64,000 nucleotides of DNA from assembly GCA_028826165.1 (NCBI GenBank), contig JAPDFW010000125.1, forward strand, positions 682,001 through 746,000, written 5' to 3'. Shown here one piece after another: positions 21,085 through 62,959 of the stretch (within the stretch, counting starts at the first letter, position 1; each line of letters starts with the position of its first letter). This stretch comes from Anaeramoeba ignava BMAN (lineage: Eukaryota > Protista > Anaeramoebae). Under the pieces are notes generated by a model that made no database searches, was not told the origin of the DNA, and saw only the letters and a program-made list of their open reading frames with translations. The position numbers were made by a program, and so were the translations under genes.

Positions 21085-21126
21085 TTTTGAAAAGAAAAAA
21101 ATGAAAAATTAAAAATGAAAATAATT

Positions 21127-23041: not shown

Positions 23042-23083
23042 TTTTGAAAAGAAAAAAATGAAAAATTAAAAATGAAAATAATT

Positions 23084-31155: not shown

Positions 31156-31194
31156 TTTTGAAAAGAAAAAAATGAAAAAAAATTTTTTGGATTT

Positions 31195-31692
31195 TTAATT
31201 TTGATTTTAATTTTAATTTTAATTTTAATTTTAATTTTAATTTTAATTTTAATTTTAATTTTAAATTTAAATTTTAATTTTAATTTTAATTTTAATTTTA
31301 ATTTTAATTTTAATTTTAATTTTAATTTTAATTTTAATTTTAATTTTAATTTTAATTTTAATTTTAATTTTAATTTTAATTTTGATTTAAATTTTAATTT
31401 TAATTTTGATTTTGATTTTAATTTTAATTTTAATTTTAATTTTAATTTTAATTTTAATTTTAATTTTAATTTTAATTTTAATTTTAATTTTAATTTTAAT
31501 TTCAATTTTATTTTTAATTTTAATTTTAATTTTGATTTTAATTTTAATTTTGATTTTAATTTGAATTTTGATTTTGAATTTTAATATTAATTTTAATTTT
31601 AATTTTAATTTTGATTTCAATTTTAATTTTAATTTTAATTTTGATTTTAATTTTGATTTTAATTTTAATTTTAATTTTAATTTTAATTTTAA
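31195..31692 (-). repeat. (TAAAAT)n satellite spacer on gene-sense strand
   Basis: (ATTTTA)n on +; similar spacers at ~29205-29368, 35385-35800, 37590-37980, 39810-39912, 41710-42045. Confidence 0.9.
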
Positions 31693-33455: not shown

Positions 33456-33508
33456 TTTCTTTATTTAATTTTTTATTTTTTGAAAAGAAAAAAAATGAAA
33501 AATGAATT

Positions 33509-35347: not shown

Positions 35348-35797
35348 TTTTTGAAAAGAAAAAAAATGAAAAAAATGATTTTTGAATTTTGATTTTAAAT
35401 TTTAATTTTGATTTTAATTTTAATTTTGATTTTAATTTTAATTTTAATTTTGATTTTAATTTTAATTTTAATTTTGATTTTAATTTTAATTTTAATTTTA
35501 ATTTTAATTTTAATTTTAATTTTAATTTTAATTTTAATTTTAATTTTAATTTTAATTTTAATTTTAATTTTAATTTTAATTTTAATTTTAATTTTAATTT
35601 TAATTTTAATTTCAAATTTAATTTTAATTTTAATTTTAATTTTAATTTTAATTTTAATTTTAATTTTAATTTTAATTTTAATTTTAATTTTAATTTTAAT
35701 TTTAATTTTGATTTTGATTTTAATTTTAATTTTAATTTGAATTTTAATTTTGATTTTAATTTTAATTTTGAATTTGATTTTGATTTTAATTTTGATT

Positions 35798-37552
35798 TTA
35801 ATTTTGATTTTGATTATTAAATTTCTTAATTAATAAATCAAATAAATTTGGATTTGTTTGATTTAATTGAAAATAATCAATTCCAATTTGAATTTCATCA
35901 ATTATTTCTTCTGTAATTTGAATTTCTTCTTTAATTTGATTTGAATAAATCCAATATTCAAATATTTGAAATGATTTATTACTTAATTCACTATAATCTG
36001 TAACTTTATTAGAAGTATCATTTGTTACAGATAAAAACATTCCTCGATATAATTCACTTCTCATTATTAATATTAATTTAGGAAATTTATATTGTTTTTC
36101 TTTTCTTTCAATAATAAAATCATTTTCATTTTCATTTAAATAAATTCTTTTCATTGTTTCTTCAATTTTTTCATTTAAATTTATAATTTCTTTAATTTCT
36201 GAATATAATTTTGGATTTATTATTCTGTTTGAATAAATCATTTCAAATATTTGATTAGATTCTTTAATTGATTTTGTTGAAATAATTTCTTGAAGTTTTT
36301 CAATTTGATTTTCAATTTGATTTAATCTATATTTCAATATTAATTTATGAGCTGAAATTATTTCTCCATTTTCGGTTTTAAATGAAATATCACAAAATTC
36401 TTTTCTTTTAAATAGTTTTATCAAATCTTCTTCAAGATTGGAAAAAGAAGAAGGAGAATAATAAAGAAATGATTTTTGATATCCACAAGAAACATGATAA
36501 TTGGAAATATTTTCATTAAATCTTAATTTAGGAAGTTCAATTTGAATTGGAACTCTTTCAATTTCTGTGATTTTGATTCCTAATTCACCATAACTGTTAC
36601 TTCCAAATGCTATAAATTTACCTTTGGAAGTTAAAATCAAAGTATGAAAGCATCCAACAGAAAAATCAAGAATATTATCATCATTTTCAAATAAATATGA
36701 TTTGATTTCAGTAAAATCTCTTATAAATTTATCGTATCTAAGTCCATTATATACGTGATATCCACATGAATAAAGTTTTCTTTTTGGATTTTGATTTTCA
36801 TTTTCATCTTCAATCAACATTATTGAATGAGCAAGTCCGCATTTAATATCAATTATTTTACCTTTTGGAATATTTTGGATTTGGGTTAATTTTTGGATTG
36901 TTTCTTCTTTTCTTGATTCTCCTAATCCAAGTTGAGCATAAAAATTATATCCGCATCCAAATAATTCTTGATTTGAATTTAAAAGAAAAAACGATTGGGA
37001 AGAGTTTCCTGAAAATATTTTAGAAACATTTTTCATTATCAAAATTGGTTTTTCTGCTTCTTCAAGTGTTTTAGAATCAAAACCAAGTTGACAAGACCTA
37101 TTTGAACCAATTCCATAAGTATTTTGATTTGAAGTTAATAAGTAAATTGTATTATATCCAGAAACAATATCTTGAATTATTCTATCATTTTTATCTTCAA
37201 TTAATGATGAAATATTGATAAATTCTTTTGGATCTTTTGAATTAATGTTTTCTCCTTTGGCAAATACATTTCCTTCTTTTGTTAAAATAGCTTCATTATA
37301 ATAGCCAACAGTTACTTTTTGAATATTTTCAATTTGAATTTTTTCAGGATTTTGATCTGAATCTTCTAAATATTCTATTGCTTTTCCATTTTTAAAAAGG
37401 AAAATTGTTGAATAATTTCCTGATGAAATTTGTTTAATTTGTTTTTCATTTTCATTTTCAAATTTAAATTGAATTGGTTTTGTTATCTTATTTGATTCAT
37501 TTTTGATAATTTTTGGAAATTGATTTGAACCAAAAAATATAATTTCATTCAT
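35798..37552 (-). CDS. R16: RCC1 + tandem BTB protein, non-CaaX
   Basis: Same architecture; ends FNNQNQN*. Confidence 0.92.
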   Translation of the reverse strand: MNEIIFFGSNQFPKIIKNESNKITKPIQFKFENENEKQIKQISSGNYSTIFLFKNGKAIEYLEDSDQNPEKIQIENIQKVTVGYYNEAILTKEGNVFAKGENINSKDPKEFINISSLIEDKNDRIIQDIVSGYNTIYLLTSNQNTYGIGSNRSCQLGFDSKTLEEAEKPILIMKNVSKIFSGNSSQSFFLLNSNQELFGCGYNFYAQLGLGESRKEETIQKLTQIQNIPKGKIIDIKCGLAHSIMLIEDENENQNPKRKLYSCGYHVYNGLRYDKFIRDFTEIKSYLFENDDNILDFSVGCFHTLILTSKGKFIAFGSNSYGELGIKITEIERVPIQIELPKLRFNENISNYHVSCGYQKSFLYYSPSSFSNLEEDLIKLFKRKEFCDISFKTENGEIISAHKLILKYRLNQIENQIEKLQEIISTKSIKESNQIFEMIYSNRIINPKLYSEIKEIINLNEKIEETMKRIYLNENENDFIIERKEKQYKFPKLILIMRSELYRGMFLSVTNDTSNKVTDYSELSNKSFQIFEYWIYSNQIKEEIQITEEIIDEIQIGIDYFQLNQTNPNLFDLLIKKFNNQNQN

Positions 37553-37977
37553 TTTTGAAAAAGAAAAAAATGAAAAATGAAAAAATAAATTTTTAATTTT
37601 AATTTTAATTTTAATTTTAATTTTAATTTTGATTTTAATTTTAATTTTGATTTTAATTTTGATTTTAATTTTGATTTTAATTTTAATTTTAATTTTAATT
37701 TTAATTTTAATTTTAATTTTAATTTTAATTTTAATTTTAATTTTAATTTTAATTTTGATTTTAATTTTAATTTTGATTTTAATTTTAATTTTAATTTTGA
37801 TTTTAATTTTAATTTTGATTTTAATTTTAATTTTAATTTTAATTTTAATTTTAATTTTAATCTTAATTTTAATTTTAATTTTAATTTTAATTTTAATTTT
37901 GATTTTAATTTTAATTTTAAATTTTATTTTTAATTTTAATTTTAATTTTAATTTTAATTTTGATTTTAATTTTAATT

Positions 37978-39771
37978 TTAATTTTGATTATTAAATTTGT
38001 TAATTAATAAATCAAATAAATTTGGATTTGTTTGATTTAATTGAAAATAATCAATTCCAATTTCTATTTCATTAATAATTTCTTGTGTAATTTTAATCTC
38101 ATTTTTAATTTGATTTGAATAAATCCAATATTCAAATATTTGAAATGATTTATTACTTAATTCACTATAATCTGTAACTTTATTAGATTTATCTTCAGTT
38201 ACAGATAAAAACATTCCTCGATATAATTCACTTCTCATTATTAATATTAATTTTGGAAATTTATATTTCTTTTCTTTTCTTTCAATTATAAAATCTTTTT
38301 CATTTTCATTTTCATTTTCATTTAAATAAATTCTTTTAATTGTTTCTTCAATTTTTTCATTTGAATTTATAATTTCTTTAATTTCTGAATATAATTTTGG
38401 ATTTATTTTGGAATTGTTTGAATAAATCATTTCAAATATTTGATTTGATTCTTTAATTGATTTTGTTGAAATAATTTCTTGAAGTTTTTCAATTTGATTT
38501 TGATTTTGATTTTGATCTTTTAATCTATATTTCAATATTAATTTATGAGCTGAGATTATTTCTCCATTTTTGGTTTTAAATGAAATATCACAAAATTCTT
38601 TTCTTTTAAATAATTTTATCAAATCTTCTTCAAGATTGGAAAAAGAAGGAGAATAATAAAGAAATGAATTGTAATTTCCACAAGAAATATGATAATTGGA
38701 AATATTTTCATTAAATCTTAATTTAGGAAGTTTAATTTGAATTGGAGTTGGTTGATGATTTGTATCTCCAGTTCCTAATTGACCAAAATAATTACTTCCA
38801 AATCCTATTAATTTCCCCTTTTCTATTAAAATCAAAGTATGCTGATTTCCACAAGAAAAATCAAGAATATTATCATCATTTTCAAATAAAGATGATTTGA
38901 TTTCAGTAAATTCATAAGTATTTTCATCTTTTTTGCCAAGCCCATTATAATGATAATCTCCACATGAATAAAGTTTTCTTTTTGGATTTTGATTTTGATT
39001 TTCAATCATCATAACTGAGTGCCAGTATCCACATTGAATATCAACTATTTTACCTTTTGGAATATTTTGGAATTTGGTTAATTTATTTATTATTCCTTCT
39101 TTTCTTTTCCCTAACCCCATTTGGCTATCTCTATTATGTCCGCATCCAAATAATTCTTGATTTGAATTTAAAAGAAAAACAAAATTTGAAGAATTTCCTG
39201 AAAATATTTTAGAAACATTTTTCATCATTAAAATTGGTTTTTCTGCTTTTCGAATTGTTTTAGAATCAAAACCAAGTTGACAAGACCTATTTGAACCAAT
39301 TCCATAAGTATTTTGATTTGAAGTTAATAAATAAATTGAATTGTATCCAGAAACAATATCTTCAATTATTCTATCATTTGTATCTTCAATTAATGATGAA
39401 ATATTGATAAATTCTTTTGGATTATTTGGATTAATATATTTTCCTTTTGCAAATACATTTCCTTCTATTGTTAAAATAGCTTCGATTTGATAACCAACAG
39501 TTACTTTTTGAATATTTTCAATTTGGATTTTTTTAGGATTTTGTTTTGAATTTCTTAAATATTCTATTGCTTTTCCATTTTTAAAAAGGAAAATTGTTGA
39601 AAAATTTGAAGAAGAAATTTGTTTAATTTGTTTTTCATTTTCATTTTCATTTTCATTTTCATTTTCATTTTCAAATTTAAATTTAAATTGAATTGGTTTT
39701 GTTATTGAATTTGGTTCATTTTTGATAAGTTTTGGAAATTCATTTAAACCAAAAAATAAACAATCATTCAT
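37978..39771 (-). CDS. R17: RCC1 + tandem BTB protein, non-CaaX
   Basis: Same architecture; ends FNNQN*. Confidence 0.92.
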   Translation of the reverse strand: MNDCLFFGLNEFPKLIKNEPNSITKPIQFKFKFENENENENENENEKQIKQISSSNFSTIFLFKNGKAIEYLRNSKQNPKKIQIENIQKVTVGYQIEAILTIEGNVFAKGKYINPNNPKEFINISSLIEDTNDRIIEDIVSGYNSIYLLTSNQNTYGIGSNRSCQLGFDSKTIRKAEKPILMMKNVSKIFSGNSSNFVFLLNSNQELFGCGHNRDSQMGLGKRKEGIINKLTKFQNIPKGKIVDIQCGYWHSVMMIENQNQNPKRKLYSCGDYHYNGLGKKDENTYEFTEIKSSLFENDDNILDFSCGNQHTLILIEKGKLIGFGSNYFGQLGTGDTNHQPTPIQIKLPKLRFNENISNYHISCGNYNSFLYYSPSFSNLEEDLIKLFKRKEFCDISFKTKNGEIISAHKLILKYRLKDQNQNQNQIEKLQEIISTKSIKESNQIFEMIYSNNSKINPKLYSEIKEIINSNEKIEETIKRIYLNENENENEKDFIIERKEKKYKFPKLILIMRSELYRGMFLSVTEDKSNKVTDYSELSNKSFQIFEYWIYSNQIKNEIKITQEIINEIEIGIDYFQLNQTNPNLFDLLINKFNNQN

Positions 39772-39908
39772 TTTTGAAAAGAAAAAAAATGAAAAAATGA
39801 ATTTTTTGATTTTGATTTTAATTTTAATTTTAATTTTTGATTTTAATTTTAATTTTAATTTTAATTTTAATTTTAATTTTGATTTTAATTTTAATTTTAA
39901 TTTTAATT

Positions 39909-41669
39909 TTAATTTTGATTATTAAATTTGATAATTAATAAATCAAATAAATTTGGATTTGTTCGATTTAATTGAAAATAATCAATTCCAATTTCAATTT
40001 CTTCAATTATATCGTTTGTAATTTGAATTTCATTTTTAATTTGATTTGAATAAATCCAATATTCAAATATTTGAAATGATTTATTACTTAATTCACTATA
40101 ATCTGTAACTTTATTAGAAGTATCATTTGTAACAGATAAAAACATTCCACGATATAATTCACTTCTCATTATTAATATTAATTTAGGAAATTTATATTGT
40201 TTTTCTTTTCTTTCAATTATAAAATCATTTTCATTTTCATTTCCATAAATTCTTTTAATTGTTTCTTCAATTTTTTCATTTGAATTTATAATTTCTTTAA
40301 TTTCAGAATATAATTTTGGATTTATTTTTCTGTTTGAATAAATCATTTCAAATATTTGATTTGATTCTTTAATTGATTTTTTTGAAATAATTTCTTGAAG
40401 TTTTTCAATTTGATTTTGATTTTGATTCAATCTATATTTCAATATTAATTTATGAGCTTTAATTATTTCTCCATTTTCTGTTTTAAATGAAATATCACAA
40501 AATTCTTTTCTTTTAAATAGTTTTATCAAATCTTCTTCAAGATTGGAAAAAGAAGGAGGAGAATAATAAAGAAACGATTTATTATTTCCACAAAGAACAT
40601 GATAATTAGAAATATCTTCATTAAATCTTAATTTAGGAAGTTTAATTTGAATTGGAACTGATGGATTTTCTTTTGTGTCTCCAGTTCCTAATTGACCATA
40701 AGAATTATATCCAAATCCAATCAATTTTGAATTAGATGCTAAAATCAAAGTATGAGAATGACCAACAGAAAAATCAAGAATATAATCATCATTTTCAAAT
40801 AAAGATGATTTGATTTCAGTAAATTCATTAGTATCTTCATCTTTGCCAAGTCCATTATTTGGATATTCTCCACATGAATAAAGTTTTCTTTTTGGATTTT
40901 GATTTTCATTTTCATCTTCAATCAACATTATTGAATGATTAAATCCAGATTGAATATCAATTATTTTGCCTTTTGGAATATTTTGGATTTTGGTTAATTT
41001 TTGGATTTTTTCTTCTCTTCTTGATTTCCCTAATCCAATTTGGCCATGGTAATTATATCCGCATCCAAATAATTCTTGATTTGAATTTAAAACAAAAGCA
41101 CAATCAGAACAATTTCCTGAAAATATTTTAGAAACATTTTTCATCATTAAAATTGGTTTTTGTGTTTTTTTAAGTGTTTTAGAATCAAAACCAAGTTGAC
41201 CAAATTCATTTGAACAAATTCCATAAACATTTTGATTTGAAGTTAATAAGTAAATTGAACCAAATCCAGAAACAACATCTTCAATTATTCTATCATTTGT
41301 ATCTTCAATTAATGATGAAATATTGATAAATTCTTTTGGATTATTTGGATTAATTTCTTTTCCTTTTGCAAATACATTTCCTTCTTTTGTTAAAATAGCT
41401 TCATTTTGATAACCAACAGTTACTTTTTGAATATTTTCTTCAATTTGGATTTTTTCAGCATTTTGATTTGAATCGTTTTCATTTAAATATTCTATTGCTT
41501 TTCCATTTTCAAAAAGGAAAATTGTTGAAAAATAACTTGATGAAATTTGTTTAATTTGTTTTTCATTTTCATTTTCAAATTTAAATTGAATTGGTTTTGT
41601 TATTTCATCTGATTCATTTTTAATAAGTTTTGGATATTGATTTGAACCAAAAAATAAACAATCATTCAT
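39909..41669 (-). CDS. R18: RCC1 + tandem BTB protein, non-CaaX
   Basis: Start placed at MNDCLFFG (41669) by homology to paralogs; the upstream 31 aa in the ORF track are satellite/promoter. Confidence 0.9.
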   Translation of the reverse strand: MNDCLFFGSNQYPKLIKNESDEITKPIQFKFENENEKQIKQISSSYFSTIFLFENGKAIEYLNENDSNQNAEKIQIEENIQKVTVGYQNEAILTKEGNVFAKGKEINPNNPKEFINISSLIEDTNDRIIEDVVSGFGSIYLLTSNQNVYGICSNEFGQLGFDSKTLKKTQKPILMMKNVSKIFSGNCSDCAFVLNSNQELFGCGYNYHGQIGLGKSRREEKIQKLTKIQNIPKGKIIDIQSGFNHSIMLIEDENENQNPKRKLYSCGEYPNNGLGKDEDTNEFTEIKSSLFENDDYILDFSVGHSHTLILASNSKLIGFGYNSYGQLGTGDTKENPSVPIQIKLPKLRFNEDISNYHVLCGNNKSFLYYSPPSFSNLEEDLIKLFKRKEFCDISFKTENGEIIKAHKLILKYRLNQNQNQIEKLQEIISKKSIKESNQIFEMIYSNRKINPKLYSEIKEIINSNEKIEETIKRIYGNENENDFIIERKEKQYKFPKLILIMRSELYRGMFLSVTNDTSNKVTDYSELSNKSFQIFEYWIYSNQIKNEIQITNDIIEEIEIGIDYFQLNRTNPNLFDLLIIKFNNQN

Positions 41670-42039
41670 TTTAGAAAAGAAAAAAAATGAAAAAATGATT
41701 TTTGAAATTTGAATTTTAATTTTAATTTTAATTTTAATTTTAATTTTAATTTTAATTTTCATTTTAATTTTAATTTTAATTTTAATTTTAATTTTAATTT
41801 TAATTTTAATTTTGATTTTAATTTTAATTTTAATTTTAATTTTAATTTTAATTTTAATTTTAATTTTAATTTTAATTTTAATTATAATTTTGATTTTAAT
41901 TTTAATTTTGATTTTAATTTTAATTTTAATTTTAATTTTAATTTTAATTTTAATTTTTATTTTAATTTTAATTTTAATTTTAATTTTAATTTTAATTTTA
42001 ATTTTAATTTTAATTTTAATTTTAATTTTAATTTTAATT

Positions 42040-43863
42040 TTAATTTTGATTTTGAATATTAAATTTGTTAATTAATAAATCAAATAAATTTGGATTTGTT
42101 TGATTTAATTGGAAATAATCAATTCCAATTTGAATTTCATCAATAATTTCTTGTGTAATTTGAATTTCATCTTTAATTTTATTTGAATAAATCCAATATT
42201 CAAATATTTGAAATGATTTATTACTTAATTCACTATAATCTGTAACTTTATTTGATTTATCTTCAGTTACAGATAAAAACATTCCTCGATATAATTCACT
42301 TCTCATTATTAATATTAATTTAGGAAATTTATATTGTTTTTCTTTTCTTTCAATAATAAAATCTTTTTCATTTTCATTTTCATTTTCATTTCCATAAATT
42401 CTTTTCATTGTTTCTTCAATTTTTTCATTTGAATTTATAATTTCTTTAATTTCTGAATATAATTTTGGATTTATTATTTTATTTGAATAAATCATTTCAA
42501 ATATTTGATTTGATTCTTTAATTGATTTTTTTGAAATAATTTCTTGAAGTTTTTCAATTTGATTTTGATTTTGATTTTGATTTAATCTATATTTCAATAT
42601 TAATTTATGAGCTTTGATTATTTCTCCATTTTCTGTTTTAAATGAAATATCACAAAATTCTTTTCTTCTAAATAATTTTATCAAATCTTCTTCAAGATTG
42701 GAAAAAGAAGAAAAAGAATAATAAAGAAATGAACTTTTATATCCGCAATAAACATGATAATTGAAAGTATCTTCATTAAATCTTAATTCAAGAAATTCAA
42801 TTTGAATTGGAAATAATTGATGATTTGTATCTCCAGTTCCTAATTGACCAAATTCATTATTTCCAAATCCAAACAATTTACCTTTGGAAGTTAAAATCAA
42901 AGTATGTTCATTCCCAACAGAAAAATCAAGAATATTATCATTTTCATTTTCTTCAAATAAAGATGATTTGATTTCAGTAAATTCATAGGTATATTCATTT
43001 TTGCCAAGTCCATTATATCTATAATCTCCACATGAATAAAGTTTTCTTTTTGGATTTTGATCTTCATTTTCAATCATCATAACTGAGTGCCAGTATCCAC
43101 ATTGAATATCAATTATTTTACCTTTTGGAATATTTTGTATTTTGGTTAATTTATCGATATATGCATCTTCTTTTCTTGATTTTTCTAATCCAAGTTGACC
43201 CCAATAATTCCAACCACATCCAAATAATTCTTGATTTGAATTTAAAAGAAAAACACAAGTTGATTCATTTCCTGAAAATATTTTAGAAACATTTTTCATC
43301 ATTAAAATTGGTTTTTCTGTTTTTCGAATTGTTTTAGAATCAAAACCAAGTTGAGTAGAATAATTTGAACCAATTCCATAAGCATTTTGATTTGAAGTTA
43401 ATAAATAAATTGAACTGTATCCAGAAACAATATCTTGAATTGTTCTATCATTTATATCTTCAATTAATGATGAAATATTGATAAATTCTTTTGGATTATT
43501 TGAATTGATATCAATTCCTTTGGCAAATACATTTCCTTCTATTGTTAAGATAGCTTCATTTGCATAACCAACAGTTAATTTTTGAATATTTTCAATTTGG
43601 ATTTTTTCAGGATTTTGATTTGAATCATTTCCTTTTAAATATTCTATTGCTTTTCCATTTTTAAAAAGGAAAATTATTGAATATTCTCCTGTTGAAATTT
43701 GTTTAATTTGTTTTTCATTTTCATTTTCATTTTCATTTTCATTTTCATTTAAATTTTCATTTTCATTTTCAAATTTAAATTGAATTGGTTTTGTTATTGA
43801 ATCTGGTTCATTTTTGATAAGTTTTGGATATTTATTATAACCAAAAAATAAACAATCATTCAT
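42040..43863 (-). CDS. R19: RCC1 + tandem BTB protein, non-CaaX
   Basis: Start placed at MNDCLFFG (43863); ends FNIQNQN*. Confidence 0.9.
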   Translation of the reverse strand: MNDCLFFGYNKYPKLIKNEPDSITKPIQFKFENENENLNENENENENENEKQIKQISTGEYSIIFLFKNGKAIEYLKGNDSNQNPEKIQIENIQKLTVGYANEAILTIEGNVFAKGIDINSNNPKEFINISSLIEDINDRTIQDIVSGYSSIYLLTSNQNAYGIGSNYSTQLGFDSKTIRKTEKPILMMKNVSKIFSGNESTCVFLLNSNQELFGCGWNYWGQLGLEKSRKEDAYIDKLTKIQNIPKGKIIDIQCGYWHSVMMIENEDQNPKRKLYSCGDYRYNGLGKNEYTYEFTEIKSSLFEENENDNILDFSVGNEHTLILTSKGKLFGFGNNEFGQLGTGDTNHQLFPIQIEFLELRFNEDTFNYHVYCGYKSSFLYYSFSSFSNLEEDLIKLFRRKEFCDISFKTENGEIIKAHKLILKYRLNQNQNQNQIEKLQEIISKKSIKESNQIFEMIYSNKIINPKLYSEIKEIINSNEKIEETMKRIYGNENENENEKDFIIERKEKQYKFPKLILIMRSELYRGMFLSVTEDKSNKVTDYSELSNKSFQIFEYWIYSNKIKDEIQITQEIIDEIQIGIDYFQLNQTNPNLFDLLINKFNIQNQN

Positions 43864-43933
43864 TTTTGAAAAGAAAAAAAATGAAAAAAAAAAAGCAAAA
43901 AAAATTTTTTTCATTTTTTTTCTTTCAATTAAA
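43864..43933. promoter_or_regulatory. 70-bp quasi-palindromic bidirectional promoter
   Basis: AAAGAAAAAAAATGAAAAAAA ... TTTTTTTCATTTTTTTTCTTT between head-to-head ATGs. Confidence 0.6.
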
Positions 43934-46900
43934 ATGTTAGCGGTTAAAAGAGCATTAAAACAATTTCAACCAAAAATTCAAGAAGCAGCAAATCGAATCT
44001 CTTCATTAATTGGAAAAACACTTGAATTTTTCTTTGATTGGGATGAATTTATGAAATCATCAACAGTAAACAAAGAAGAAAAACCAAAAATCATTGAATT
44101 AGTTGTTGAACGATATATTCCAAACATTGAAGCTGCGTAAGAATAAATAATTCAAACATTTTTTTAAATTTTGAAAGCAAAAAAATTTTTTTTTATTTTT
44201 AACATTCTTATTCTCATTTACCATTATAATTATAATTATAATTATAAATGAATTTTAATTTTAAATTTAATTTTAATTATAATTATAATTTTAATTTTAA
44301 TTTTAATTTTAATTTTAATTTTAATTTTAATTTTAATTTTAATTTTAATTTTAATTTTAATTATAATTTTGAATTTTAATTTTAATTTTAATTTTAATTT
44401 TAATTTTAATTTTAATTTTAATTTTAATTTTAAATTATAATTTTAATTTTAATTTTAATTTTAAGTCAATTTTAATTTTAATTTTAATTTTAATTTTGAT
44501 TTTAAATTTAATTTTAATTTTAATTTTAAATTTAATTTTAATTTTAATTTTAAATTTAATTTTAATTTTAATTTTAATTTGATTTTGAATTTTAATTTTG
44601 ATTTTAATTTTAATTTTAATTTTAATTTTTGAATTTTAATTTTAAATTTTTAATTTTAATTTTAATTTTGATTTTAATTTTAATTTTAATTTTAATTTTA
44701 ATTTTAATTTTAATTTTAATTTTTAATTTTAATTTTAATTTTAATTTTAATTTTAATTTTTATTTTTTAAATTTTTAAATGATTTTTAATTTTGATTTTA
44801 ATTTTAATTTTTAATTTTAATTTTAATTTTTTAATTTTAAATTTTTTTAATTTTAATTTTTTAATTTTAATTTTAATTTTAATTTTATTTAATTTTTATT
44901 TTTAATTTTAATTTAATTTTAATTTTAATTATAATTTTTAATTTTATTTTTTTTAATTTAAATTTTGATTTTAATTTTATTTTAATTTTAATTTTTTTTT
45001 AATTTTAATTTTAATTTTAATTTTAATTTTATTAAATTTTGATTTTAATTTTAATTTTAATTTTAATTTTAAATTTTGATTTTAATTTTAATTTTAATTT
45101 TAATTTTAATTTTGATTTTAATTTTAATTTTAATTTTAATTTTAATTTTAATTTTAATTTTAATTTTAAATTTTAATTTTAATTTTAATTTTAATTTTAA
45201 TTTTAAATTATAATTTTAATTTTAATTAGAATTACAGAAATTGTTAAAGAAAAACCAGGACAAAAAGTGATGTCTGTTATTGAGAAAATTATTATTCGAA
45301 TTATCACAAATCAAACTGATGTAACTAATTTCTCGTTTACATTTGAAGATGAAGATACAACACTTGTTTTTAATGTTTTACCTGCTCAAATGTATTACAG
45401 TTCTTCTGGTTTAGTTACTCCTCTCAAAAAATTATTGGATAATGCTTATAATCTCAATGTTTGGGATAAACAATCTCAAGCTAAACCAATTATTGATGAA
45501 TTTAAAAAGAAATTTACTCAATTAATCGGGGTTGAAGAAGTTAAATTTAATATTAAATTGAATTTTAAAGAGTAATTTTCTCAAAATCAAATTAATTTAA
45601 AATTAAAATTCAAATCAAAATTAAATTTTAAAATTTAAATTAAAATTCAATTCAAAATCAAAATTAAAATCAAAATCAAAATCAAAATCAAAATTTAAAA
45701 TCAAATCAAAAACAAAATCAAAATCAAAATTTAAAATCAAAATCAAAAAAAATCAAATTTAAAATCAAATTTTAAAAATTAAAATAAAAATTAAAATTAA
45801 AATTAAAATCAAATTTAAAATTAAAATTAAAAATTAAAATTTAAAATTAAAATTCAAAATTAAAAATTAAAATTTAAAATTAAAATCAAATTTAAAATCA
45901 AATTAAAAATTAAAATCAAAATTTAAAATTAAAATTAAAATTAAAATTAAAATTACAAAAAATTAAAATCAAAATTAAAATTAAATTTAAAATCAAAATT
46001 AAAATTCAAAATCAAAATTAAAATTAAAATTAAAATTATAATTAAAATTAAAATTTAAAATCAAAATTAAAATTAAATTTAAAATTTAAAATCAAAATTA
46101 AAATTAAATTTAAAATTTAATTAAAATCAAATTCAATTCAAAATTAAAATTAGATTCCTTAAAAGTGAATCGGTTTCACAAGATGATAAAGGCAAAATCT
46201 TTGATTTAACAAAAGATCGATATTTACCAAACATTTATTCAGCTTTTCAAGAAATTTCACAAGATCTTATTGGAAAAAACATTTTCAAAAACATTTCCAA
46301 ACTTACAATCTTAATTCATGTTGATTCAACAACTCAATCCAATTTCTCATTCACTCTTGATGATCAATTAACAACTTTAGTTTTTCATATTCTTGCTAAA
46401 CAAATTTATTATTCTTCAAGTGGCTTAGCTAGACCTTTAAGAAAAATTTTAGATGATAATTATAACTTGAATATTCTTTTGGCTTTGGAAGAGAATAATA
46501 AAAAGATTACTCAATTTGCTGAACAATTTTCTAAACTTCCTGGTGTTGAAGACTCTTTTCAAATTTTCATGGATGTTCAACAGTATATTTTCAATATCAA
46601 TTTTAAATTTAAATATCAATTTAAATATCAATTTAAATATCAATATCAATATCAATTTAAATATCAATTTCAATTTAAATATCAATTTAAATATCAATTT
46701 AAATATAAATTTAAATATCAATTTTAATATCAATATTAATATCAATATCAATTTAAATATCAATTTAAATATCAATATCAATATCAATTTAGATATCAAT
46801 TTAAATATCAATTTAAATATCAATTTAAATATCAATTTAAATATCAAATTTAAATATCAAATTTAAATATCAATTTAAATATCAATATCAATATCAATTT

Positions 46901-51559: not shown

Positions 51560-54500
51560 ATGTCAATTACTCAAGAAGATATTATTCAAATTAAACAAGA
51601 AATTGCAAAAATCCAAAAACAAGATCCTCAAATAGAAAAAGTAAAAAGATTTATAAATAAAAAATCAAAAAAATTTTCAATTAAAAATCATTTAAAATGG
51701 AAAAAAAATTTTTTTCAATTTTTTTCAATTAAAAAAAGAATGAAGAAAAAGTAATTGATATGATAAATAGATTAAATGAGATGAACATGAATTTAGATAT
51801 TTTAAAGAAAACGAAGATAGGATTTATAATAAACAAATTGCGTGGGAATACCAACCAAAAAGTTCAAACGGAAGCAAGAAAATTATTTACAAAATGGAGG
51901 AAGATTTATGAAAATTCCAAAAATAAAAACAACAAAAATTCGGAAACAAATTCACCTTCAATAAAGAAACAAACAAAAATTGTTTCCGATGGAATTAATC
52001 AAATTAATTCAACAGGAAATCCTCAAAGAAATCGATTCCAAAATCTTTTATGTGAAGATTTAAAAAAAATTGAAGCAAAAATTCAATTAAACAATCAATT
52101 AAACAATCAATTAAAAAATCAATTAAAAAATTCGACTGGTTTTCAAAAAACTGCTGAATTTCTTGCTGAAGAAATTGAAAATGGTATTCCCTTTTTCTCT
52201 GTTGTTTATTTAAAATCAAAATTCATTTATAAAATTAAAATTATTAAAATTCATTTATAAAATTAAAATTAAAATTAAAATTAAAATTAAAATTAAAATT
52301 AAAATCAAAATTCATTTATGAAATTAAAATTAAAATTAAAATTAAAATTAAAATTAAAATTAAAATTAAAATTAAAATTAAAATTAAAATCAAAATTAAA
52401 ATTAAAATTAAAATCAAAATTAAAATTAAAATTAAATTTAAAATTTAAAATTAAAATTAAAAATTAAAATTATTAAAATTAAAATTAAAATTAAAATTCA
52501 TTTAAAATTAAAATTAAAATTAAAATCAAAATTAAAATTAAAATTGAAATTAAAATTAAAATTAAAATTAAAATTCATTTATAAAATTAAAATTAAATTT
52601 TGAAATTAAAATTAATTTTGAAATTAAAATTAAAATTAAAATTAAAATTAAAAATTAAAATTAAAATTAAAATTAAAATTAAAATCGGATAAAAATTAAA
52701 ATTGAAAAATGATAGCATTATTCGAAATATATGGAGAAGTAAATGATAAATATAAAGAAAAATACCGGAAAATTGGGTTTATTTTAACAGAAAATAAATC
52801 TGTAAGAGAGGATATAAAAAGGAAAATATTTTCAGGAGAAATCACACCAAAAGAATTTTGTGAAATGAAAGATGAAGATTTTATGACAAGTGAAAAAAAA
52901 CAAGAAATTAAAGATTTAGAAAAACAAGCATTTGAAAGTGCAATGGCTCCTCAGCCAACTCAAGTTACTACTACTGAATTCCGTTGTGGAAGATGCGGTA
53001 AAAGGCAATGCAAAGTTTGGCAAAGACAAACAAGATCTGCTGATGAACCTGCTACTACTTATGTTCGTATGTGTTTATTTTTTAATCCAAAAAATAAATA
53101 TTATTTTGAAATAAATATTATTTAATCTAAATATTATTTAATCTAAATATTATTTTGAAATAAATATTATTTAATCTAAATATTATTTTGAAATAAATAT
53201 TATTTAATCTAAATATTATTTAATCTAAATATTATTTTGAAATAAATATTATTTAATCTAAATATTATTTAATCTAAATATTATTTAATCTAAATATTAT
53301 TTAATCCAAATATTATTTAATCTAAATATTATTTAATCTAAAAAATTATTTAATCTAAATATTATTTTAATCCAAAATATTTAATCTAAAATATTATTTT
53401 TAACTAAATATTATTTTTGAAATAAATATTATTTTGAAATAAATATTATTTAATCTAAATATTATTTTAAATCTAAATATTATTTAATCTAAATATTATT
53501 TAATCTAAATATTATTTAATCTAAATATTATTGAAATAAATATTATTTAATCTAAATATTATTTAATCTAAATATTATTTATTTAATCCAAATATTATTG
53601 AAATAAATATTATTTAATCTAAAAATTATTTAATCTAAATATTATTTAATCTAAATATTATTTAATCCAAATATTATTTAATCTAAATATTATTTAATCC
53701 AAATATTATTTAATCTAAATATTATTTTTGAAATAAATATTATTTAATCTAAATATTATTTAATCCAAATATTTTTAATCCAAAATAAATATTATTTAAT
53801 CTAAATATTATTATTTAATCTAAATATTATTTAATCCAAATATTTTTAATCCAAAATAAATATTATTTAATCTAAATATTATTTAATAATCTAAATATTA
53901 TTTAATCCTAAATATTATTTAATCTAAATATTATTTAATCTAAAAATTATTTAATCTAAATATTATTTAATCTAAATATTATTTAATCAAAATATTATTT
54001 AATCAAAATATTATTTAATCCAAAAAAATATTATTTAAAACTAAATATTATTTTTAATCTAAATATTATTATTTAATCTAAATATTATTTAATCCTAAAT
54101 ATTATTTAATCCAAATATTATTGAAATAAATATTATTTAATCCAAATATTATTTTGAAATAAATATTATTTAATCTATATTATTTAATCTAAATATTATT
54201 TTGAAATAAATATTATTTAATCTAAATATTATTGAAATAAATATTATTTAATCAAAATATTATTTAATCAAAATATTATTCTGAAATAAATATTATTTTA
54301 ATCTAAATATTATTATGAAAAATATTATTTAATCAAAATATTATTTTGAAATAAATATTATTTAATCTAAATATTATTTAATAATCCAAATATTATTTTG
54401 AAATAAATATTATTTAATCTAAATATTATTTAATCTAAATATTATTTTGAAATAAATATTAATTAATCTAAATATTATTTAATCTAAATATTATTTAATC

Positions 54501-55055: not shown

Positions 55056-57878
55056 ATGGATCCAAATTCGCAATATCAAATGCCATTAGAAGAAACAACA
55101 AATGGATCTTTTTCATTAGAACAACAAACAAAACGACGAAAAACGCGAATAAAACAAGAAACAGAAACAACATTAACAAATTTATTTGCAGAAACAACAC
55201 AATCAATAAGATCTGAACAAGAAATTGAAGATCAACAAATAAGAACTAATGAAAATGAGAATGACAAAAAAACAAATGGAATTATAAATAGTGATCAAAT
55301 CAATGTCAATTTGGATAATAAAAATAATTTAAATTTGAGTAATGCTAATGCTAATTCAAATAATGTTAATGTTAATTCGAATAATGTTAATGTTAATTCG
55401 AATAATGCTAATGCCAATCCAAATAATGCTAATGCCAATCCAAATAATACTAACAATACATCCCAAATTGCAAATCATCATAATAATACTCATAACCAAA
55501 ATAGACAGAATTCCAATAATAATGATCAAGATGATACTGAATATTATTCAGATCCACCAACAAATGATCAAGAATCACCAAATATTAATACAGAAAATGA
55601 AAATACAAATAACACAACAAACACAAATAACGAACAATCAACACAACCAACACAACCAACACAACCAACACAACCAACACAGCAAATTATGCCAGGAATC
55701 CAACATATGTTTCAAAATTCTGCGCCTCAGCAACCCACACATGCGCAAAAAGAACAAAAAACAAATTCAAAATCACTAATTGAAGAATGTGTAGTTAAAG
55801 TAGTTCGAAATAATCAAAAACCACACAGTTATAAAATTTTAACGCAATTGAAAAAAGTGTTTTCGCAAAGACTTCCAAATATGGAACGGGAATACATTTC
55901 CAAAGTTTTATTTAACAAAAACCATCTCTCACTTGTTATTCTTCGAGCGGAGAAAGTAGTTGGTGGTACAACTTTCCGTCCTTTTAAAAAACAAGGATTT
56001 GTGGAGATTGTATTTGTTGCAATTTCAAGCAAATCGCAAGGAAAAGGATTTGGAAGAAGTTTAATGTCCCATCTTAAAAATTATTGCAAAAAAGAACTTA
56101 AAATTTTTGATTTACTAACTTATGCTGATAATCAAGCTATTATTTTTTTCCAAAAACAAGGATTTTCTAAAGAAATTAGAATCAAAGCTGAACATTGGAA
56201 AGGATATATTAAGGATTATGATAGAAGTACTTTAATGCATTGCAAAATTTATCCCAAAGTTGATTATTTAAAAATTGAAAAAATGGTTGATAAACAAAAG
56301 GATCATTTGAATCAATTGATTCAGAAAGTTGCTAGAAAACAAATTTTTTATCCTGGCTTGAATTTTGATAATGGAGTTGCTGAAATTCCTTTAGAAAAAA
56401 TACCTGGAATTGGTATGCAAATTATTTAAAAAATTAAATATAAAATTATTAATAAAATTAAATATAAAATTATTTATTAAATTAATTATAAAATTAAATA
56501 TAAAATTATTTATAAAATTATTTATTAAATTAATTATAAAATTAAATATAAAATTAAATATAAAATTATTTATAAAATTATTTATAAAATTATTTATTAA
56601 ATTATTTATTAAATTATTTATAAAATTATATATAAAATTAAATATAAAATTATTTATAAAATTATTTATTAAATTATTTATAAAATTAATTATAAAATTA
56701 ATTATAAAATTATTTATAAAATTAATTATAAAATTATTTATAAAATTATTTATAAAATTATATATAAAAATTATATATAAAATTAATTATAAAATTATTT
56801 ATTAAATTATATATAAAATTATTTATAAAATTAATTATTAAATTATATATAAAATTATTTATAAAATTATTTATAAAATTAATATAAAATTATTTATAAA
56901 ATTAAATATAAAATTAAATATAAAATTAAATATAAAATTAAATATAAAATTATTTATAAAATTATTTATTAAATTATTTATAAAATTAAATATAAAAATT
57001 AAATATAAAATTATTTATAAAATTATTTATAAAATTATTTATAAAATTAATTATAAAATTATTTATAAAATTATTTATAAAATTATTTATAAAATTAATT
57101 ATAAAATTATTTATAAAATTATTTATAAAATTAATTATAAAATTATTTATAAAATTAATTATAAAATTAATTATAAAATTATTTTATAAAATTAATTATA
57201 AAATTATTTATAAAATTAATTATAAAATTATTTATAAAATTAATTATAAAATTATTTATAAAATTATTTATAAAATTAAATATAAAATTAATTATAAAAT
57301 TATTTATAAAATTAAATATAAAATTAATTATAAAATTAATTATAAAATTAATTATAAAATTATTTATAAAATTAATTATAAAATTAATTATAAAATTATT
57401 TATAAAATTATTTATTAAATTATTTATAAAATTATTTTAATCTTTTTTATAAAATTTTTTACAAAATTATTTATAAAATTATTTTAATCTTTTTTATAAA
57501 ATTAAAAAAATAGATTCAAAATTAATTGCAAGAATAAAATTTGAATATAGCATAGATTTACCAACAAGATTAAGAGAAATTCTAGAATCATTAAAAAAAC
57601 ATGAAGCATCATGGCCATTTCTTGAACCAGTTGACAAATCACAAGTACCAGATTATTATGACGTTATAAAAAATCCAATTGATCTTTCAATAATTGAAAA
57701 AAAACTAAATAATTCAGAATATACAAGAAAATCCTTATTTTTTCAAGATATCGAGTTGATGTGCCAAAATTGCTTTAGATATAACGCTAAAGAAACTATT
57801 TTTTATAGTTGTGGTGACAAAATTTTAAAAGCATTCCATTCAAAAGTCAGATCAATGGAAAAAGCAATGTTGTTATAA
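55056..57878 (+). CDS. GCN5: Histone acetyltransferase GCN5 (573 aa); exons 55056-56412 and 57514-57878
   Basis: LPNMEREYI, GG.TFRPF..QGFVEIVFVAI, QGKGFG..LM.HLK, LTYADN.AI.FF.KQGF, GYIKDY; bromodomain WPFLEPVD..VPDYYDVIKNPIDL...NCFRYN in exon 2. Confidence 0.94.
56420..57505 (+). repeat. Intronic ~12-bp (ATAAAATTATTT)n satellite
   Basis: Fills the GCN5 intron. Confidence 0.9.
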
Positions 57879-58145: not shown

Positions 58146-61100
58146 ATGAAGAGATTATTATTTCGTTCAAAAAGTTTTAAAATGTGTTTGTATTATTTTA
58201 AAAAAGAAAAAGAAAAAGAAAAAGAAAAAGAAAAAAATTTTTTTCGTTAAAAAATTTTAAAATAAATTCAATTTGAAAATAAAAAATTAGCAAGTGAAAG
58301 AGTAAAACCTTTAACAAAATTGAAATTTCGCAACGCAACTCAACCTAATTTAGCAATTCATTTAGAAGATCTTACAAAAACTGAAAAAGACCAAATTCCT
58401 TTAATTTTAAAACAAATTGTTGAAAAAATTGAATCAAAATGTTAATTCAAAACTTTTTAAATTAAAAAGAAAATTTTTAAATTTATAAAATTTTTAATTG
58501 GATTTTCTTTATCAAATTAAATTAGATATTGATACAGAAGGTTTATTTAGAGTTTCAGGGTCTGCTTTATTAATTGAAAAACATCGACAAAATTTAAGTT
58601 TAAGTGAGAAATCAAAACAAAAAAAAAATAAATAAAAAAAATAAATTGATTAATTTTTTCCTAAATTTATTTAAAAGATGGGAAATTAAATCTTGAATCA
58701 ATTACAGATCCACATGTTTTGACAGGTTTATTAAAAGCTTTTTTAAGAGAACTTTCTGAACCATTAATTCCACCCAGTGAATTTCCAAAATGGAATAAAG
58801 CGAGTAAATTTCTTTTTAAATCAAAAACTTTAAATTAATATTTAAATTAATATTTAAATTGATATTTAAATTAATATTTAAATTAATATTTAAATTGATA
58901 TTTAAATTGATATTTAAATTGATATTTGAATTGATATTTAAATTGATTTTTTAAATTGATATTTAAATTGATATTAAAATTGATATTTAAATTAATATTT
59001 AAATTGATTTAATTGATATTTAATTTAATATTTAAATTAATATTTAAATTGATATTTAAATTGATTTTAAATTAATATTTAAATTGATATTTAAATTAAT
59101 ATTTAAATTGATATTTAAATTGATATTTAAATTAATATTTAAATTAATATTTAAATTGATATTTAAATTAATATTTAAATTAATATTTAAATTTAATATT
59201 TAAATTGATATTTAAATTGATATTTAAATTAATATTCAAATTAATATTTAAATTAATATTTAAATTAATATTTGAATTGATATTTAAATTAATATTTAAA
59301 TTGATATTTAAATTAATATTTAAATTAATATTTAAATTGATATTTGAATTGATATTTAAATTGATTTTTTAAATTGATATTTAAATTGATTTTAAATTGA
59401 TATTTAAATTGATATTTAAATTAATATTTAAATTAATATTTAAATTAATATTTAAATTAATATTTAAATTAATATTTAAATTAATATTTAAATTAATATT
59501 TAAATTAATATTTAAATTGATATTTGAATTGATATTTGAATTGATTTTTTAAATTGATATTTAAATTGATTTTAAATTGAATTTTAAATTTATTTAATGA
59601 CTTTATAGAAACATCTGAACAAATTCGTCAACTTCTTCAAGAAATTCCCAAAAATAATTTCGAAACATTGAAATATTTAATGAAATTTTTTAATACAATT
59701 GATAAACATTCAGATCAAAATAAAATGACAAGCGAAAATATTTCAAAGATATTTGGACCAAACATATTTCGACCTACTAACTCAACGAACATAATGGACT
59801 TGCGCTCACAACTATTTGCAGTTCCCAATTCAGTTTTGAATATGATGATCACAAATCACACCGAAATTTTTGAGCCAAAAAAAACTGAAGATCAAACATA
59901 CGAACTTGTATATGATTCAACATCATCGGATGGAGAACAATTTGGTGGGATACTTCTAAATAAAGAATCTCAAAAAATCCCCGAAATGAATGATATTTTG
60001 TTGTCAATTTGCACTCGAGTTAAAGGATTATCCTCTTTTAAACTTAAAAATTATTTCAATGATAACATGAAAATTAAAACAGCTCTACTTGACGAATTTA
60101 ATTCACCAATGGATTCTATTCCGCTTCATAAAGAACAAATTGCGGATTTCTTTTCCCAAAATGAAGAACAATTATCAGAAAAAAATCCCCATTTGGAAGA
60201 GCAAAATCTCAATAAAATCAATAAAATCAATAAAATCAATAAAACACAATTGCAAAAACTTGATGAAAAAATTCGTTCTCATATCACAATGTTGGTTCAT
60301 TATAAATTTGAATTTGAAAACAATATTTTTTCAAAAGAATTTCTTGATCTCGATTCAAAAAACACTCAACAAGAAAATTCACCAAAAAAGGAAGTAATTT
60401 CAGCGTTAGAATTCATCAATAAAGGTCGCAAAGAGTTTGAAGAAATGTGGAAAGATTACGAAAATCTTTCTGCTACAATTATTCAAAAAATATTTCGTGG
60501 TTATTTCAATTTTTCAAGGTTTAAAATGGCAAAATTTATTCGATCCAAAAAATTATTTCAAGTTTTGAATAAATTTGGAGAAAAAGAGGAACAAAAATAT
60601 CTTGATTTATATAAGATTTTCTGCTTATTTCCTTTATCACCTCCTGATTATAATTTTCAAGAATTTAAACTTGAAAATATTCTTATGAATAAGTCAGATG
60701 ATGAAGATGAAAAATCAAATGAAAAATCAAATGAAAAATCAAATGAAAAATCAAATGAAAATACAAATGAAAATATAAATGAAAATATAAATGAAAATAT
60801 AAATGAAAATAAAAATGAAAATACAAATGAAAATACAAACGAAAATAAAAACGAAAATACAAATGAAAATACAAATGAAAATACAAATGAAAATACAAAT
60901 GAAAAATTAAATGAAATTACAATTCAAAAATTAAAAAGAAATTTAAGTGAAAATTCAAATCAAAATCAAAATCAAAATGAAAATTCAAGTCGAAATTTAA
61001 ATAGAATTTCAAGTGAAAAATTACATCAAAGATCAAATAGAAAATTAATTCATATTAAATTTGAAGATGAAAATGAAAAGAAACAATCAAATGAAAAATT

Positions 61101-62586
61101 ACATCATAGATCAAATAGAAAATTAGTTCATATTAAATTTGAAGATGAAAATCAAAATGAAAATCAAATTCAAAATGAAAATAAAAATGAAAATGAAAAT
61201 GAAAATCAAAATGAAAATAAAAATGAAAATCAAATTCAAAATGGAAATCAAAATCAAAATCAAAATCAAAATCAAAATCAAAATCAAAATCAAAATCAAA
61301 ATGAAAATGAAAATGAAAATGAAAATCAAAATGAAAATCAAAATGAAAATCAAAATGAAAATCAAAATATAAATCAAAATGAAAATCAAAATTTAAATCA
61401 AAATGAAAATCAAAATCAAAATCAAAATGAAAATCAAAATGAAAATGAAAATGAAAATGAAAATCAAAATGAAAATCAAAATCAAAATGAAAATCAAAAT
61501 GAAAATATAAATCAAAATGAAAATCAAAATGAAAATGAAAATGAAAATGAAAATCAAAATGAAAATGAAAATCAAAATCAAAATCAAAATCAAAATGAAA
61601 ATAAAAATGAAAATGAAAATGAAAATCAAAATGAAAATGAAAATCAAAATCAAAATCAAAATCAAAATGAAAATCAAAATGAAAATCAAAATCAAAATGA
61701 AAATCAAAATGAAAATGAAAATGAAAATCAAAATGAAAATCAAAATCAAAATCAAAATGAAAATCAAAATGAAAATAATGAAAATCAAAATGAAAATGAA
61801 AATGGAAATAATGAAAATAATGAAAATAATGAAAATCAAAATCAAAATCAAAATCAAAATCAAAATCAAAAAAAACAATCATTTGCTCAAATCATTCAAT
61901 CTAGACTTGAAATGTATCGAACCAAACAAAAAAGAAATCCTTCTTTATCTAAAATGTCAGTTGCTGAACTTGTAATCGAAAAAGCTTGTATTAAACAAGA
62001 AATCCAACTTTTCGAATCTAAATTCAAAGAATTTTTTGGATTTACAACATCAACAATAACACAAACAAAACTAAAACCGATTTTGTCATTAAAAACAGAA
62101 GTGAATTTAATTCTTTATTTTCGTTTAAGAGATTTGCTTAACGAAAAATTTTTGCCTTCACCAATTCAAAAAAGTCAAAATTCATCACCAACATTAACAC
62201 CAAATAAACAGTTAAAAAATTTAGCTTTTAGTCCACTTTCTAGTGTTGAAAAACGATCTTCACGAACTCATTCTTCTTATATTGTTGAAGTGATCAAGTC
62301 AAAAAATCTACTTTCAACAACACGCAGGCAAAATCAAATTAAGTCCCGAATAGAAAAAATTCGGACAGTTCAAAAATCTTTTGTAAATAAATACCCAGAA
62401 TATTCCGACTTTGTTGAGTCTTATATTAATGAACAAAATGAACTTTTTTCTTCTGTTTCTGAAAATCTTTCTCAACTTGATTCAACCAAACCTAAAATTA
62501 CTCGTTCATTGCCTTCACGTAAAAGTTCTCGCAGAAAAACATTCACACTTGCAAGAAAGGAATTATTTTCAATTCTTGATAATTGA
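58146..62586 (+). CDS. RhoGAP with IQ motif, N/E/Q low-complexity tract and FAM13-like C-terminal segment; exons 58146-58173 (or -58185), 58291-58440, 58526-58603, 58678-58803, 59609-62586
   Basis: Spliced [21 protein letters not shown] (Arg finger), [41 protein letters not shown]; IQ motif [11 protein letters not shown]; first exon donor ambiguous. Confidence 0.85.
58830..59590 (+). repeat. Intronic 12-bp (ATATTTAAATT[A/G])n satellite
   Basis: Fills RhoGAP intron 4. Confidence 0.9.
60710..61870 (+). repeat. Coding low-complexity ([14 protein letters not shown])n tract built from AAAATN hexamers
   Basis: Within the RhoGAP ORF, frame maintained. Confidence 0.9.
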
Positions 62587-62723
62587 ATAATTTAAAGAAA
62601 AAGAAAGAAAAAATTAAAAGGAATTATTTTGTAATAAATAAAAAGAAAGAAAAAATTACTAAAAAATATTAAAAATTATTAAAATTTTTATATTTAAAAA
62701 GAATTAAAAAAATTTTTTTTTTC

Positions 62724-62956
62724 ATTTTTTCTTTTGCACAAAGAGGCACATCTTTATATATTTTGTGTGAAGATGTTTAAGCGTTGTGCTAAACACTAAA
62801 AATTCAAGCACCATCTTCGTAGGGTCTCTTAAATCCATTGACGATTATGATTTAAGGGTAGTGTGCTTGTATTTTTTGAAGGACCAGTCTGAAAGTTATT
62901 TTTATATTATTTTTATAATATGAATTTGTGATAACTTTCCGTAAAACCTTCGAAAA
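62724..62956 (+). ncRNA. Structured ncRNA candidate: three stem-loops and an Sm-site-like AUUUUUUG; U4 snRNA-like features
   Basis: Non-coding, GC-enriched island preceded by TTCATTTTTT; stems 62736-41/62784-89, 62748-60/62764-76, 62805-11/62863-69, 62826-35/62849-58, 62878-82/62947-51, 62891-99/62931-39; G-U pairs favour the + strand. Confidence 0.6.
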
Positions 62957-62959
62957 TTT

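Follow-up and report, generated by a model that had tools for sequence, protein, structure and literature searches.

An island of non-coding DNA in Anaeramoeba ignava is apparently a genuine RNA gene, and apparently an undescribed one. Judged from its sequence, the island RNA is probably an H/ACA-type snoRNA that binds rRNA. It is predicted to pair with two deeply conserved sites of the large-subunit (LSU) rRNA that are pseudouridines in yeast, one of them from a pocket whose two strands stand in inverted order.

The island and its surroundings

The island is flanked by a RhoGAP gene (+, stop at 62586) and by a gene for an aldo-keto reductase (-, stop at 63430); the nearest named relatives of the reductase are A. 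ignava proteins of 54-60% identity. GC content is 19.5% across the window, which is the whole 64,000-nt stretch of DNA analysed; excerpts of PMC11550330 give an A+T content of 80.65% for the A. ignava nuclear genome. Within the island GC rises to 0.305 (62700-62899), compared with 0.165-0.19 in two upstream windows that are partly coding, and downstream it falls to 0.04-0.07. No long open reading frame runs over the island, the longest ATG-started frames being 8 aa (+) and 38 aa (-). The sequence-only reading of this DNA had described a GC-enriched non-coding island between convergent genes, and GC counts, reading frames and gene stops all agree with that description. Nine GC-enriched stretches lie outside long ORFs in the window; the island is without ORF cover, and the other eight resemble pieces of protein genes by eye. 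Apart from low-complexity flanks, the window contains no further copy of the island, which is single-copy there, and a scan of the window for tRNA and tmRNA returned none.

Elsewhere in the window, at least 12 similar ORFs of ∼600 aa stand in tandem arrays at 1048-10915 (+), 19321-24934 (-) and 29368-43965 (-). The one that was scanned (33512-35401) encodes RCC1 repeats and a BTB domain, and array copies near 36500-37400 and 40600-41400 have no long ORF and appear frameshifted. Ankyrin-repeat and BTB proteins are interspersed among these RCC1-BTB arrays (16190-19231, -; 24838-27294, +). The window also holds a Splicing factor 1/BBP-like gene (15367-16170, +), a TFIIS gene (51733-53122, +) and a Gcn5-like gene (55056-57875, +) with a GNAT domain followed by a bromodomain, interrupted by an AT-only stretch at ∼56430-57470. 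The last exon of the RhoGAP gene (59668-62586, +) encodes a tract of ∼300 residues made up almost entirely of N/Q/E repeats.

At the 5′ edge of the island stands an initiator-like motif of a kind common to the window's protein genes, which agrees with the earlier claim that the RNA has an initiator of its own. Of the 17 long ORFs, many of them paralogues, 14 have TCATTT in the 45 nt before their first ATG; among random 45-nt windows it occurs in 612 of 5,000. A polymerase II start at 62724 is therefore a fair inference. Transcription from the A at 62724, a predicted and unmapped start, would give a 12-nt U-rich leader, and with a predicted 3′ end at ∼62959 the RNA would be ∼235 nt long. A TCATTTTTT(T)CTTTT-type motif directly 5′ of the start codons of 14 of the 17 long ORFs is a candidate initiator of the lineage.

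Six of the ten sequencing runs listed contain the island stretch or part of it, and contigs were aligned for four of them. One 197-nt contig of the RNA-labelled sediment run X3 matches the island; it has no loose ends, both its termini lie inside the predicted gene, and the DNA run X2 continues to 62985. Run X4, flagged as probably DNA, yielded a single adapter-flanked 139-nt insert (62749-62887), and run X1 has island words in its index, with contigs on the upstream gene and none on the island. The X3 contig hints only weakly at a discrete RNA, and neither the strand nor the ends of such an RNA can be read from it. All island pieces from X3 and X4 are at least 99% identical, so they offer no usable variation. 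The upstream coding stretch 62000-62587 has no cover in X3 and X4, and X7, a DNA run from the sample of X4, contains 0.00 of the words. As the runs were picked for containing the island, these absences were not counted as evidence.

Three pocketed hairpins and their boxes

The features of the island are as follows. Stems and pockets are taken from the fold, and lines that give a motif alone are position checks: every motif named in the sequence-only reading was found at the place it had given.

62721..62735, +: initiator-like motif TTCATTTTTTCTTTT, from the TCATTT enrichment upstream of the window's ORFs
62721, +: motif TTCATTTTTT
62731-48, +: 18-mer, earlier proposed as a U6-pairing segment
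62736..62789, +: hairpin 1, from fold and pair probabilities
62736-41/62784-89, +: hairpin 1, lower stem
62742-47 (AGAGGC) and 62777-83 (UUAAGCG), +: hairpin 1, pocket strands
62745..62941, no strand: stretch covered by the single 197-nt contig of RNA-labelled sediment run X3, at least 99% identical
62748-54/62770-76, +: hairpin 1, upper stem, fully paired
62769, +: motif GAAGATG
62787, +: motif TGCTAA, 38 nt after the 18-mer
62793, +: motif ACACTA
62793..62798, +: H box ACACUA, 16 nt past the top of pocket 1
62805..62869, +: hairpin 2, with lower stem 62805-11/62863-69
62812, +: motif CATCTTC
62812-25 (CAUCUUCGUAGGGU) and 62859-62 (UAGU), +: hairpin 2, asymmetric pocket
62819, +: motif GTAGGGT
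62826-35/62849-58, +: hairpin 2, upper stem, probability 0.88-0.92 for nine of ten pairs
62870..62878, +: U-rich linker, earlier read as an Sm-like site; hairpin 3 can be lengthened at its base by 62873-77
62871, +: Sm-like motif ATTTTTTG
62878..62951, +: hairpin 3, stem probabilities 0.99-1.0
62878-82/62947-51, +: hairpin 3, lower stem
62883, +: motif ACCAGTCT
62883-90 (ACCAGUCU) and 62940-46 (CGUAAAA, plus C62947), +: hairpin 3, pocket strands
from 62891/62939, +: hairpin 3, long upper stem
62941, +: motif GTAAAAC
62954..62959, +: AAA at the position of an ACA box, then a U run; 14 nt past the top of pocket 3

Folding of the + strand yields -60.6 kcal/mol and a z-score of -4.88 (0 of 200 shuffles), that of the - strand a z-score of -3.22 (0 of 200 shuffles), and the lowest of 32 background windows reached -3.2 at 15 shuffles each. 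That background window, 8101-8333, lies within an RCC1-BTB-like ORF. Most helix pairs of the island have probabilities of 0.88-1.0, with two terminal pairs at 0.63 and 0.57. The ensemble is in line with three hairpins, each with a lower stem, an internal pocket and an upper stem, an anatomy of the H/ACA type; the pocket of hairpin 2 was defined from the ensemble-supported stems and not from the minimum-energy fold. The proposal of three hairpins with internal loops was thus upheld, and so was that of a T run after the island, where AAA and then UUU stand 3′ of hairpin 3. A further suggestion, that 62769-75 pairs with 62812-18 as a conformational switch, was not: the probability of this pairing is 0.00.

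Among the ANANNA motifs of the island only ACACUA sits in a hinge; the other three are buried in the upper stem of hairpin 3, which is paired. In an H box, the hinge ANANNA and the top of the 5′ pocket are ∼14-16 nt apart, and for ACACUA this distance is 16 nt. Neither an H nor an ACA box was found 14-16 nt downstream of hairpin 2. No ACA follows hairpin 3, the only ACA triplets of the island being at 62738, 62748 and 62793, and we therefore class the RNA as working like the H/ACA family, not as a canonical member. AAA may act as a variant of ACA. Here it belongs to an A run able to pair with 62873-76. The 3′ pocket of yeast H/ACA RNAs is strongly ACA-dependent according to excerpts of PMC5778458.

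Searched with Rfam, the whole window gave no match at the gathering score and, at E ≤ 10, only weak matches far below it (mir-785, mir-202, RUF2 and others). None of the snoRNA families matched the island, and the comparison with U4, U4atac and H/ACA models that the sequence-only reading had proposed gave no match even at E ≤ 10. A homologue scan of metagenome contigs with the three pocket motifs and two gaps returned seven matches, none of which (0/7) has the three-hairpin layout by eye; with no homologue found, there is no covariation. We found no paper joining 'Anaeramoeba' with 'snoRNA' or 'snRNA'.

Predicted pairing of the pockets with rRNA

To search for targets we used proxy rRNAs from eukaryotic rDNA contaminating prokaryotic assemblies, of which six LSU and five SSU sequences were aligned; all targets are thus judged on the rRNA of other eukaryotes and not on Anaeramoeba's own. 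Each pocket was scored against 634 conserved U columns in both orders, normal and inverted, allowing gaps of two or three bases, and the species median was taken. The scoring scheme was home-made, and the inverted geometry was included because the sequence-only reading had spotted it. As the LSU loci were retrieved through the U2975 motif, its presence in six of six follows from how they were chosen and says nothing of added conservation. Yeast numbering was anchored on the identity pattern of modified bases in the excerpted Table 1 of PMC5699541; the anchor fits at 8/8 in four of the six LSUs for 2975 and at 9/9 in three of five for 2260. Complete eukaryotic rDNA units were found within five prokaryotic genome records (L011, L017, L021, L035 and L043), two of them, L043 and L035, with group I introns. 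Some 380 stored stretches contain the LSU motif. In viral contigs a scan for the SSU motif gave none, and the LSU motif occurred there in two short fragments.

Hairpin 3 gave the strongest signal. Its top site is the LSU segment AGACAGGU[UA]GUUUUAC, found in inverted order only, with a score of 29 (next 14), or 32 with C62947. The fit comprises 7/8 and 7/7, that is 14 of 15 Watson-Crick pairs, around the U equal to yeast 2975, with one mismatch, opposite 62886, against all six proxy LSUs and arm energies of -6.2 and -4.3 kcal/mol on LSU 2967-2983. In normal order the best conserved site scores only 18.5 (reached in 601 of 3,000 shuffles), and on conserved SSU sites the inverted pocket reaches at most 14, against 29 on LSU (2-3-nt gaps, not distant motifs). 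For hairpin 2, the top site is the helix 69 (H69) sequence ACUA[UG]ACUCU... in normal order, with a score of 27 (next 17) and its U equal to yeast 2260. The 5′ strand makes 11 of 14 pairs, three of them G-U, with mismatches, and the 3′ strand only four (-0.5 kcal/mol). Shuffles reached this fit in 47 of 3,000 cases in normal order and 97 of 3,000 in either order. This normal-order fit to the H69 Ψ2260 site had been missed in the sequence-only reading. For hairpin 1 the unshifted pocket points to the SSU site equal to yeast U1185, with a score of 23 (next 15), which 202 of 3,000 shuffles reached and which is not significant alone; U1185 is absent from the excerpted yeast table. If the register is shifted, the first place goes to an LSU site close to yeast U819 (22) and the second to the U2258 site (20). 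SSU U1185, LSU ∼U819 and U2258 are thus candidates only, and the target of hairpin 1 is not secure.

Taken over shuffled strands in either geometry, the scores of hairpins 1, 2 and 3 were reached in 202, 97 and 3 of 3,000 cases, and with within-strand shuffles in 119, 61 and 0 of 2,000, jointly in 0 of 2,000; pockets on the minus strand score 13-24. The second of the earlier ideas, an H/ACA-like guide, is supported, most strongly by the inverted match of hairpin 3. It had placed three elements on a conserved LSU segment in a non-standard pocket order: ACCAGTCT and GTAAAAC proved to fit in that order (3/3,000 and 0/2,000), and GUAGGGU near the U2975 site stayed within chance, a 7-mer match arising in 1,801 of 20,000 shuffles. 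We also considered a nested fold with AAAC at 62791-94 as the 5′ strand of a normal-order U2975 pocket, and rejected it by eye for want of a closing stem at the junction.

Proposed mode of action, alternatives and known systems

On balance, we favour an independently transcribed H/ACA-type snoRNA of ∼235 nt that acts on the large-subunit pre-rRNA by an inverted clamp, working as follows. RNA polymerase II would transcribe the RNA from the initiator at 62724, and Cbf5-Nop10-Nhp2-Gar1 would load on hairpin 1 at the H box and on hairpin 3 at the AAA in the ACA position, making hairpin 1 a box-anchored guide. Hairpin 2 would pair in normal order round the H69 uridine (yeast 2260), as in snR191/U19; since no box accompanies it, it would serve as a weak guide or as an anchor, and that it actually modifies U2260 is doubtful. 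Hairpin 3 would pair with both flanks of the U2975 equivalent, and the two bases UA, at the bottom of the pocket, would stay unpaired. If the AAA anchors Cbf5, the target U would lie a pocket's length away from the active site, so the segment would be held and the U not converted. In guides, according to excerpts of PMC2664660 and PMC5778458, the antisense elements occupy the distal pocket, with the box ∼14 nt away from the U; those of snR30 occupy the proximal pocket, and no base is modified. Hairpin 3 would accordingly resemble snR30 on 18S rRNA in its action, clamping LSU 2967-2983 at the root of the peptidyl-transferase domain during early 60S folding. The proximal UA, together with the lack of a free apical-side box for reverse loading, makes a clamp the most likely working. 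We hold the chances about equal that the inverted pairing of hairpin 3 is real and used. The composite picture, a three-module snoRNA whose upside-down 3′ pocket clamps a deeply conserved pseudouridine site at the peptidyl-transferase root, joined to an H69 guide, is put forward tentatively. Under the upside-down reading, a permuted guide of the snR42 type may have become a 60S folding chaperone, or Cbf5 may be loaded in reverse.

The main rival, which we regard as unlikely, is an ordinary guide whose normal-order target lies outside the sequences scanned. It would be an H/ACA snoRNA or scaRNA whose hairpin 3 guides a U in a variable rRNA segment or an snRNA, the target reading UUUUAC(G)-UN-AGACUGGU, and the inverted match would be coincidental. 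Loop I of U5, which is U-rich, would presumably be a fitting partner for the 3′ strand of hairpin 3 too. In keeping with such a guide, the AAA lies at exactly the normal ruler distance of 14 nt past the top of pocket 3, and the scan covered the rRNA of other eukaryotes, not of Anaeramoeba. Nor did we find an inverted pocket on a contiguous target in excerpts of PMC11550330, PMC2664660, PMC5778458, PMC5499648, PMC5699541, PMC3228867, PMC6984369, PMC3542256, PMC4696412, PMC6466398, bioRxiv 2024.02.02.578723 and PMC13015370. However, the ordinary guide would have to reconcile a best conserved normal-order site of just 18.5, matched by 601 of 3,000 shuffles, with an inverted match that only 3 of 3,000 and 0 of 2,000 reach and that leaves exactly a conserved pseudouridine site unpaired. 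Were the inverted pocket instead an active, circularly permuted guide, Cbf5 would sit upside-down on hairpin 3, with the basal helix as its upper stem, and make Ψ at U2975. The strands do leave a two-base UA gap, as in a normal pocket, and the swap could have come from a trimmed tandem duplication of a snR42-type hairpin, but the apical side of the pocket offers no unpaired ACA or H box at a distance of 14-16 nt, and the ANANNA motifs there (62904, 62915 and 62918) are paired and at least 21 nt away; we hold this quite improbable. A structured RNA of another kind, not bound by Cbf5 and with or without rRNA pairing, is rather improbable: it would agree with the missing canonical ACA, the missing box after hairpin 2, three hairpins instead of two and the lack of an Rfam match, but not with stem-pocket-stem anatomy in three of three hairpins, an H box at 16 nt after hairpin 1 and a joint rRNA fit reached by 0 of 2,000 shuffles.

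A divergent U4 snRNA, the lead idea of the sequence-only reading, would pair with U6 through 62731-48 and 62787-92 and bind Sm proteins at 62871-78. Its motifs are present, and 62731-43 is self-complementary (-2.0 kcal/mol). UGCUAA indeed follows at the 38-nt spacing, but TGCTAA occurs 13 times on the + strand of the window; likewise the Sm-like ATTTTTTG is in place, but with 26 copies on the + and 29 on the - strand, 55 in 80% AT DNA, it is uninformative, and the copy between hairpins 2 and 3 is partly paired with 62952-56. For the most part, the two segments meant to pair with U6 are paired to one another inside hairpin 1. As had been conceded, the 5′ stem-loop has no canonical kink-turn: its upper stem is paired throughout and has no opposing GA, and the 5′ arm 62748-60 contains no GA that could form the tandem G-A. 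With no U4 or U4atac match at E ≤ 10, and with rRNA complementarity explaining hairpins 2 and 3 better, a U4 is very improbable. Equally hard to credit is a palindromic DNA remnant without a functional RNA, its contigs deriving from DNA. Expression amounts to one contig from an RNA-labelled run and one insert from a run flagged as probably DNA, as such a remnant would allow; against it stand the single copy in the window, the better folding of the + strand, the initiator-like motif at the 5′ edge and the match of the pockets to conserved rRNA sites.

Target searches for orphan H/ACA RNAs use the normal pocket order. If the inverted pairing of the H/ACA-type snoRNA favoured here is true, some orphans may have overlooked targets in inverted order, permutation can turn a guide into a clamp that does not modify, and the proximal-pairing mode is not unique to snR30. 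Hairpin 3 in wild-type and strand-swapped form would be a small construct for learning how Cbf5 orientation relates to RNA chaperoning at the peptidyl-transferase centre. The island RNA would also be an early description of a non-coding RNA for the Anaeramoeba lineage.

Set against known systems, the island RNA shares with U4 snRNA only the short motif resemblances of the earlier proposal, and differs by the absence of a kink-turn and of an Rfam match and by three long pocketed hairpins. Box H/ACA snoRNAs have two stem-pocket-stem hairpins where the island has three; their bipartite pairing, judged on the proxy rRNAs, is present in hairpin 2 (which has no box), marginal in hairpin 1 and inverted in hairpin 3. 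Yeast snR191 and human U19 (SNORA74) guide LSU Ψ2258 and Ψ2260. The likeness lies in the normal-order pocket of hairpin 2 for the U2260 equivalent and in the shifted register of hairpin 1, where the U2258 equivalent comes second (20), although that fit is poor, with three pairs on one side and one inner mismatch. Human U19 has three hairpins. In the island, by contrast, the middle hairpin carries the U2260 pocket, without a box at ruler distance, the 3′ hairpin aims at another site, and the Rfam family model gives no match at E ≤ 10. As in yeast snR42 and human ACA27 (SNORA27), the guides for LSU Ψ2975, both flanks of the same U are complemented with a two-base gap; the strands of the island, however, are in swapped order with the U at the bottom of the pocket, there is no normal-order Ψ2975 pocket, hairpin 3 has one mismatch against the six proxy LSUs, and AAA stands in place of ACA. 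Microsporidia keep U19/snR191 and ACA27/snR42, two of their four assignable H/ACA RNAs, according to excerpts of PMC5499648.

The processing snoRNA snR30/U17, as described in excerpts of PMC2664660, provides a precedent for proximal-loop pairing. Whereas snR30, whose m1/m2 motifs pair with 18S ES6, grips two distant 18S motifs joined by a stem-loop, the island RNA would bind one contiguous LSU segment round a known modification site; it has no Rfam match to this family, and the strands of hairpin 3 match LSU and not SSU in the pocket scan. In yeast snR37, excerpts of PMC13015370 describe an H/ACA RNA with extra helices, a guiding and a non-guiding module and a place in early pre-60S particles, so that guiding and scaffolding at the peptidyl-transferase centre are combined in one RNA. 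The 3′ hairpin of snR37 has no pocket and works through extra proteins (excerpts of PMC13015370), whereas that of the island RNA is open and complementary to rRNA.
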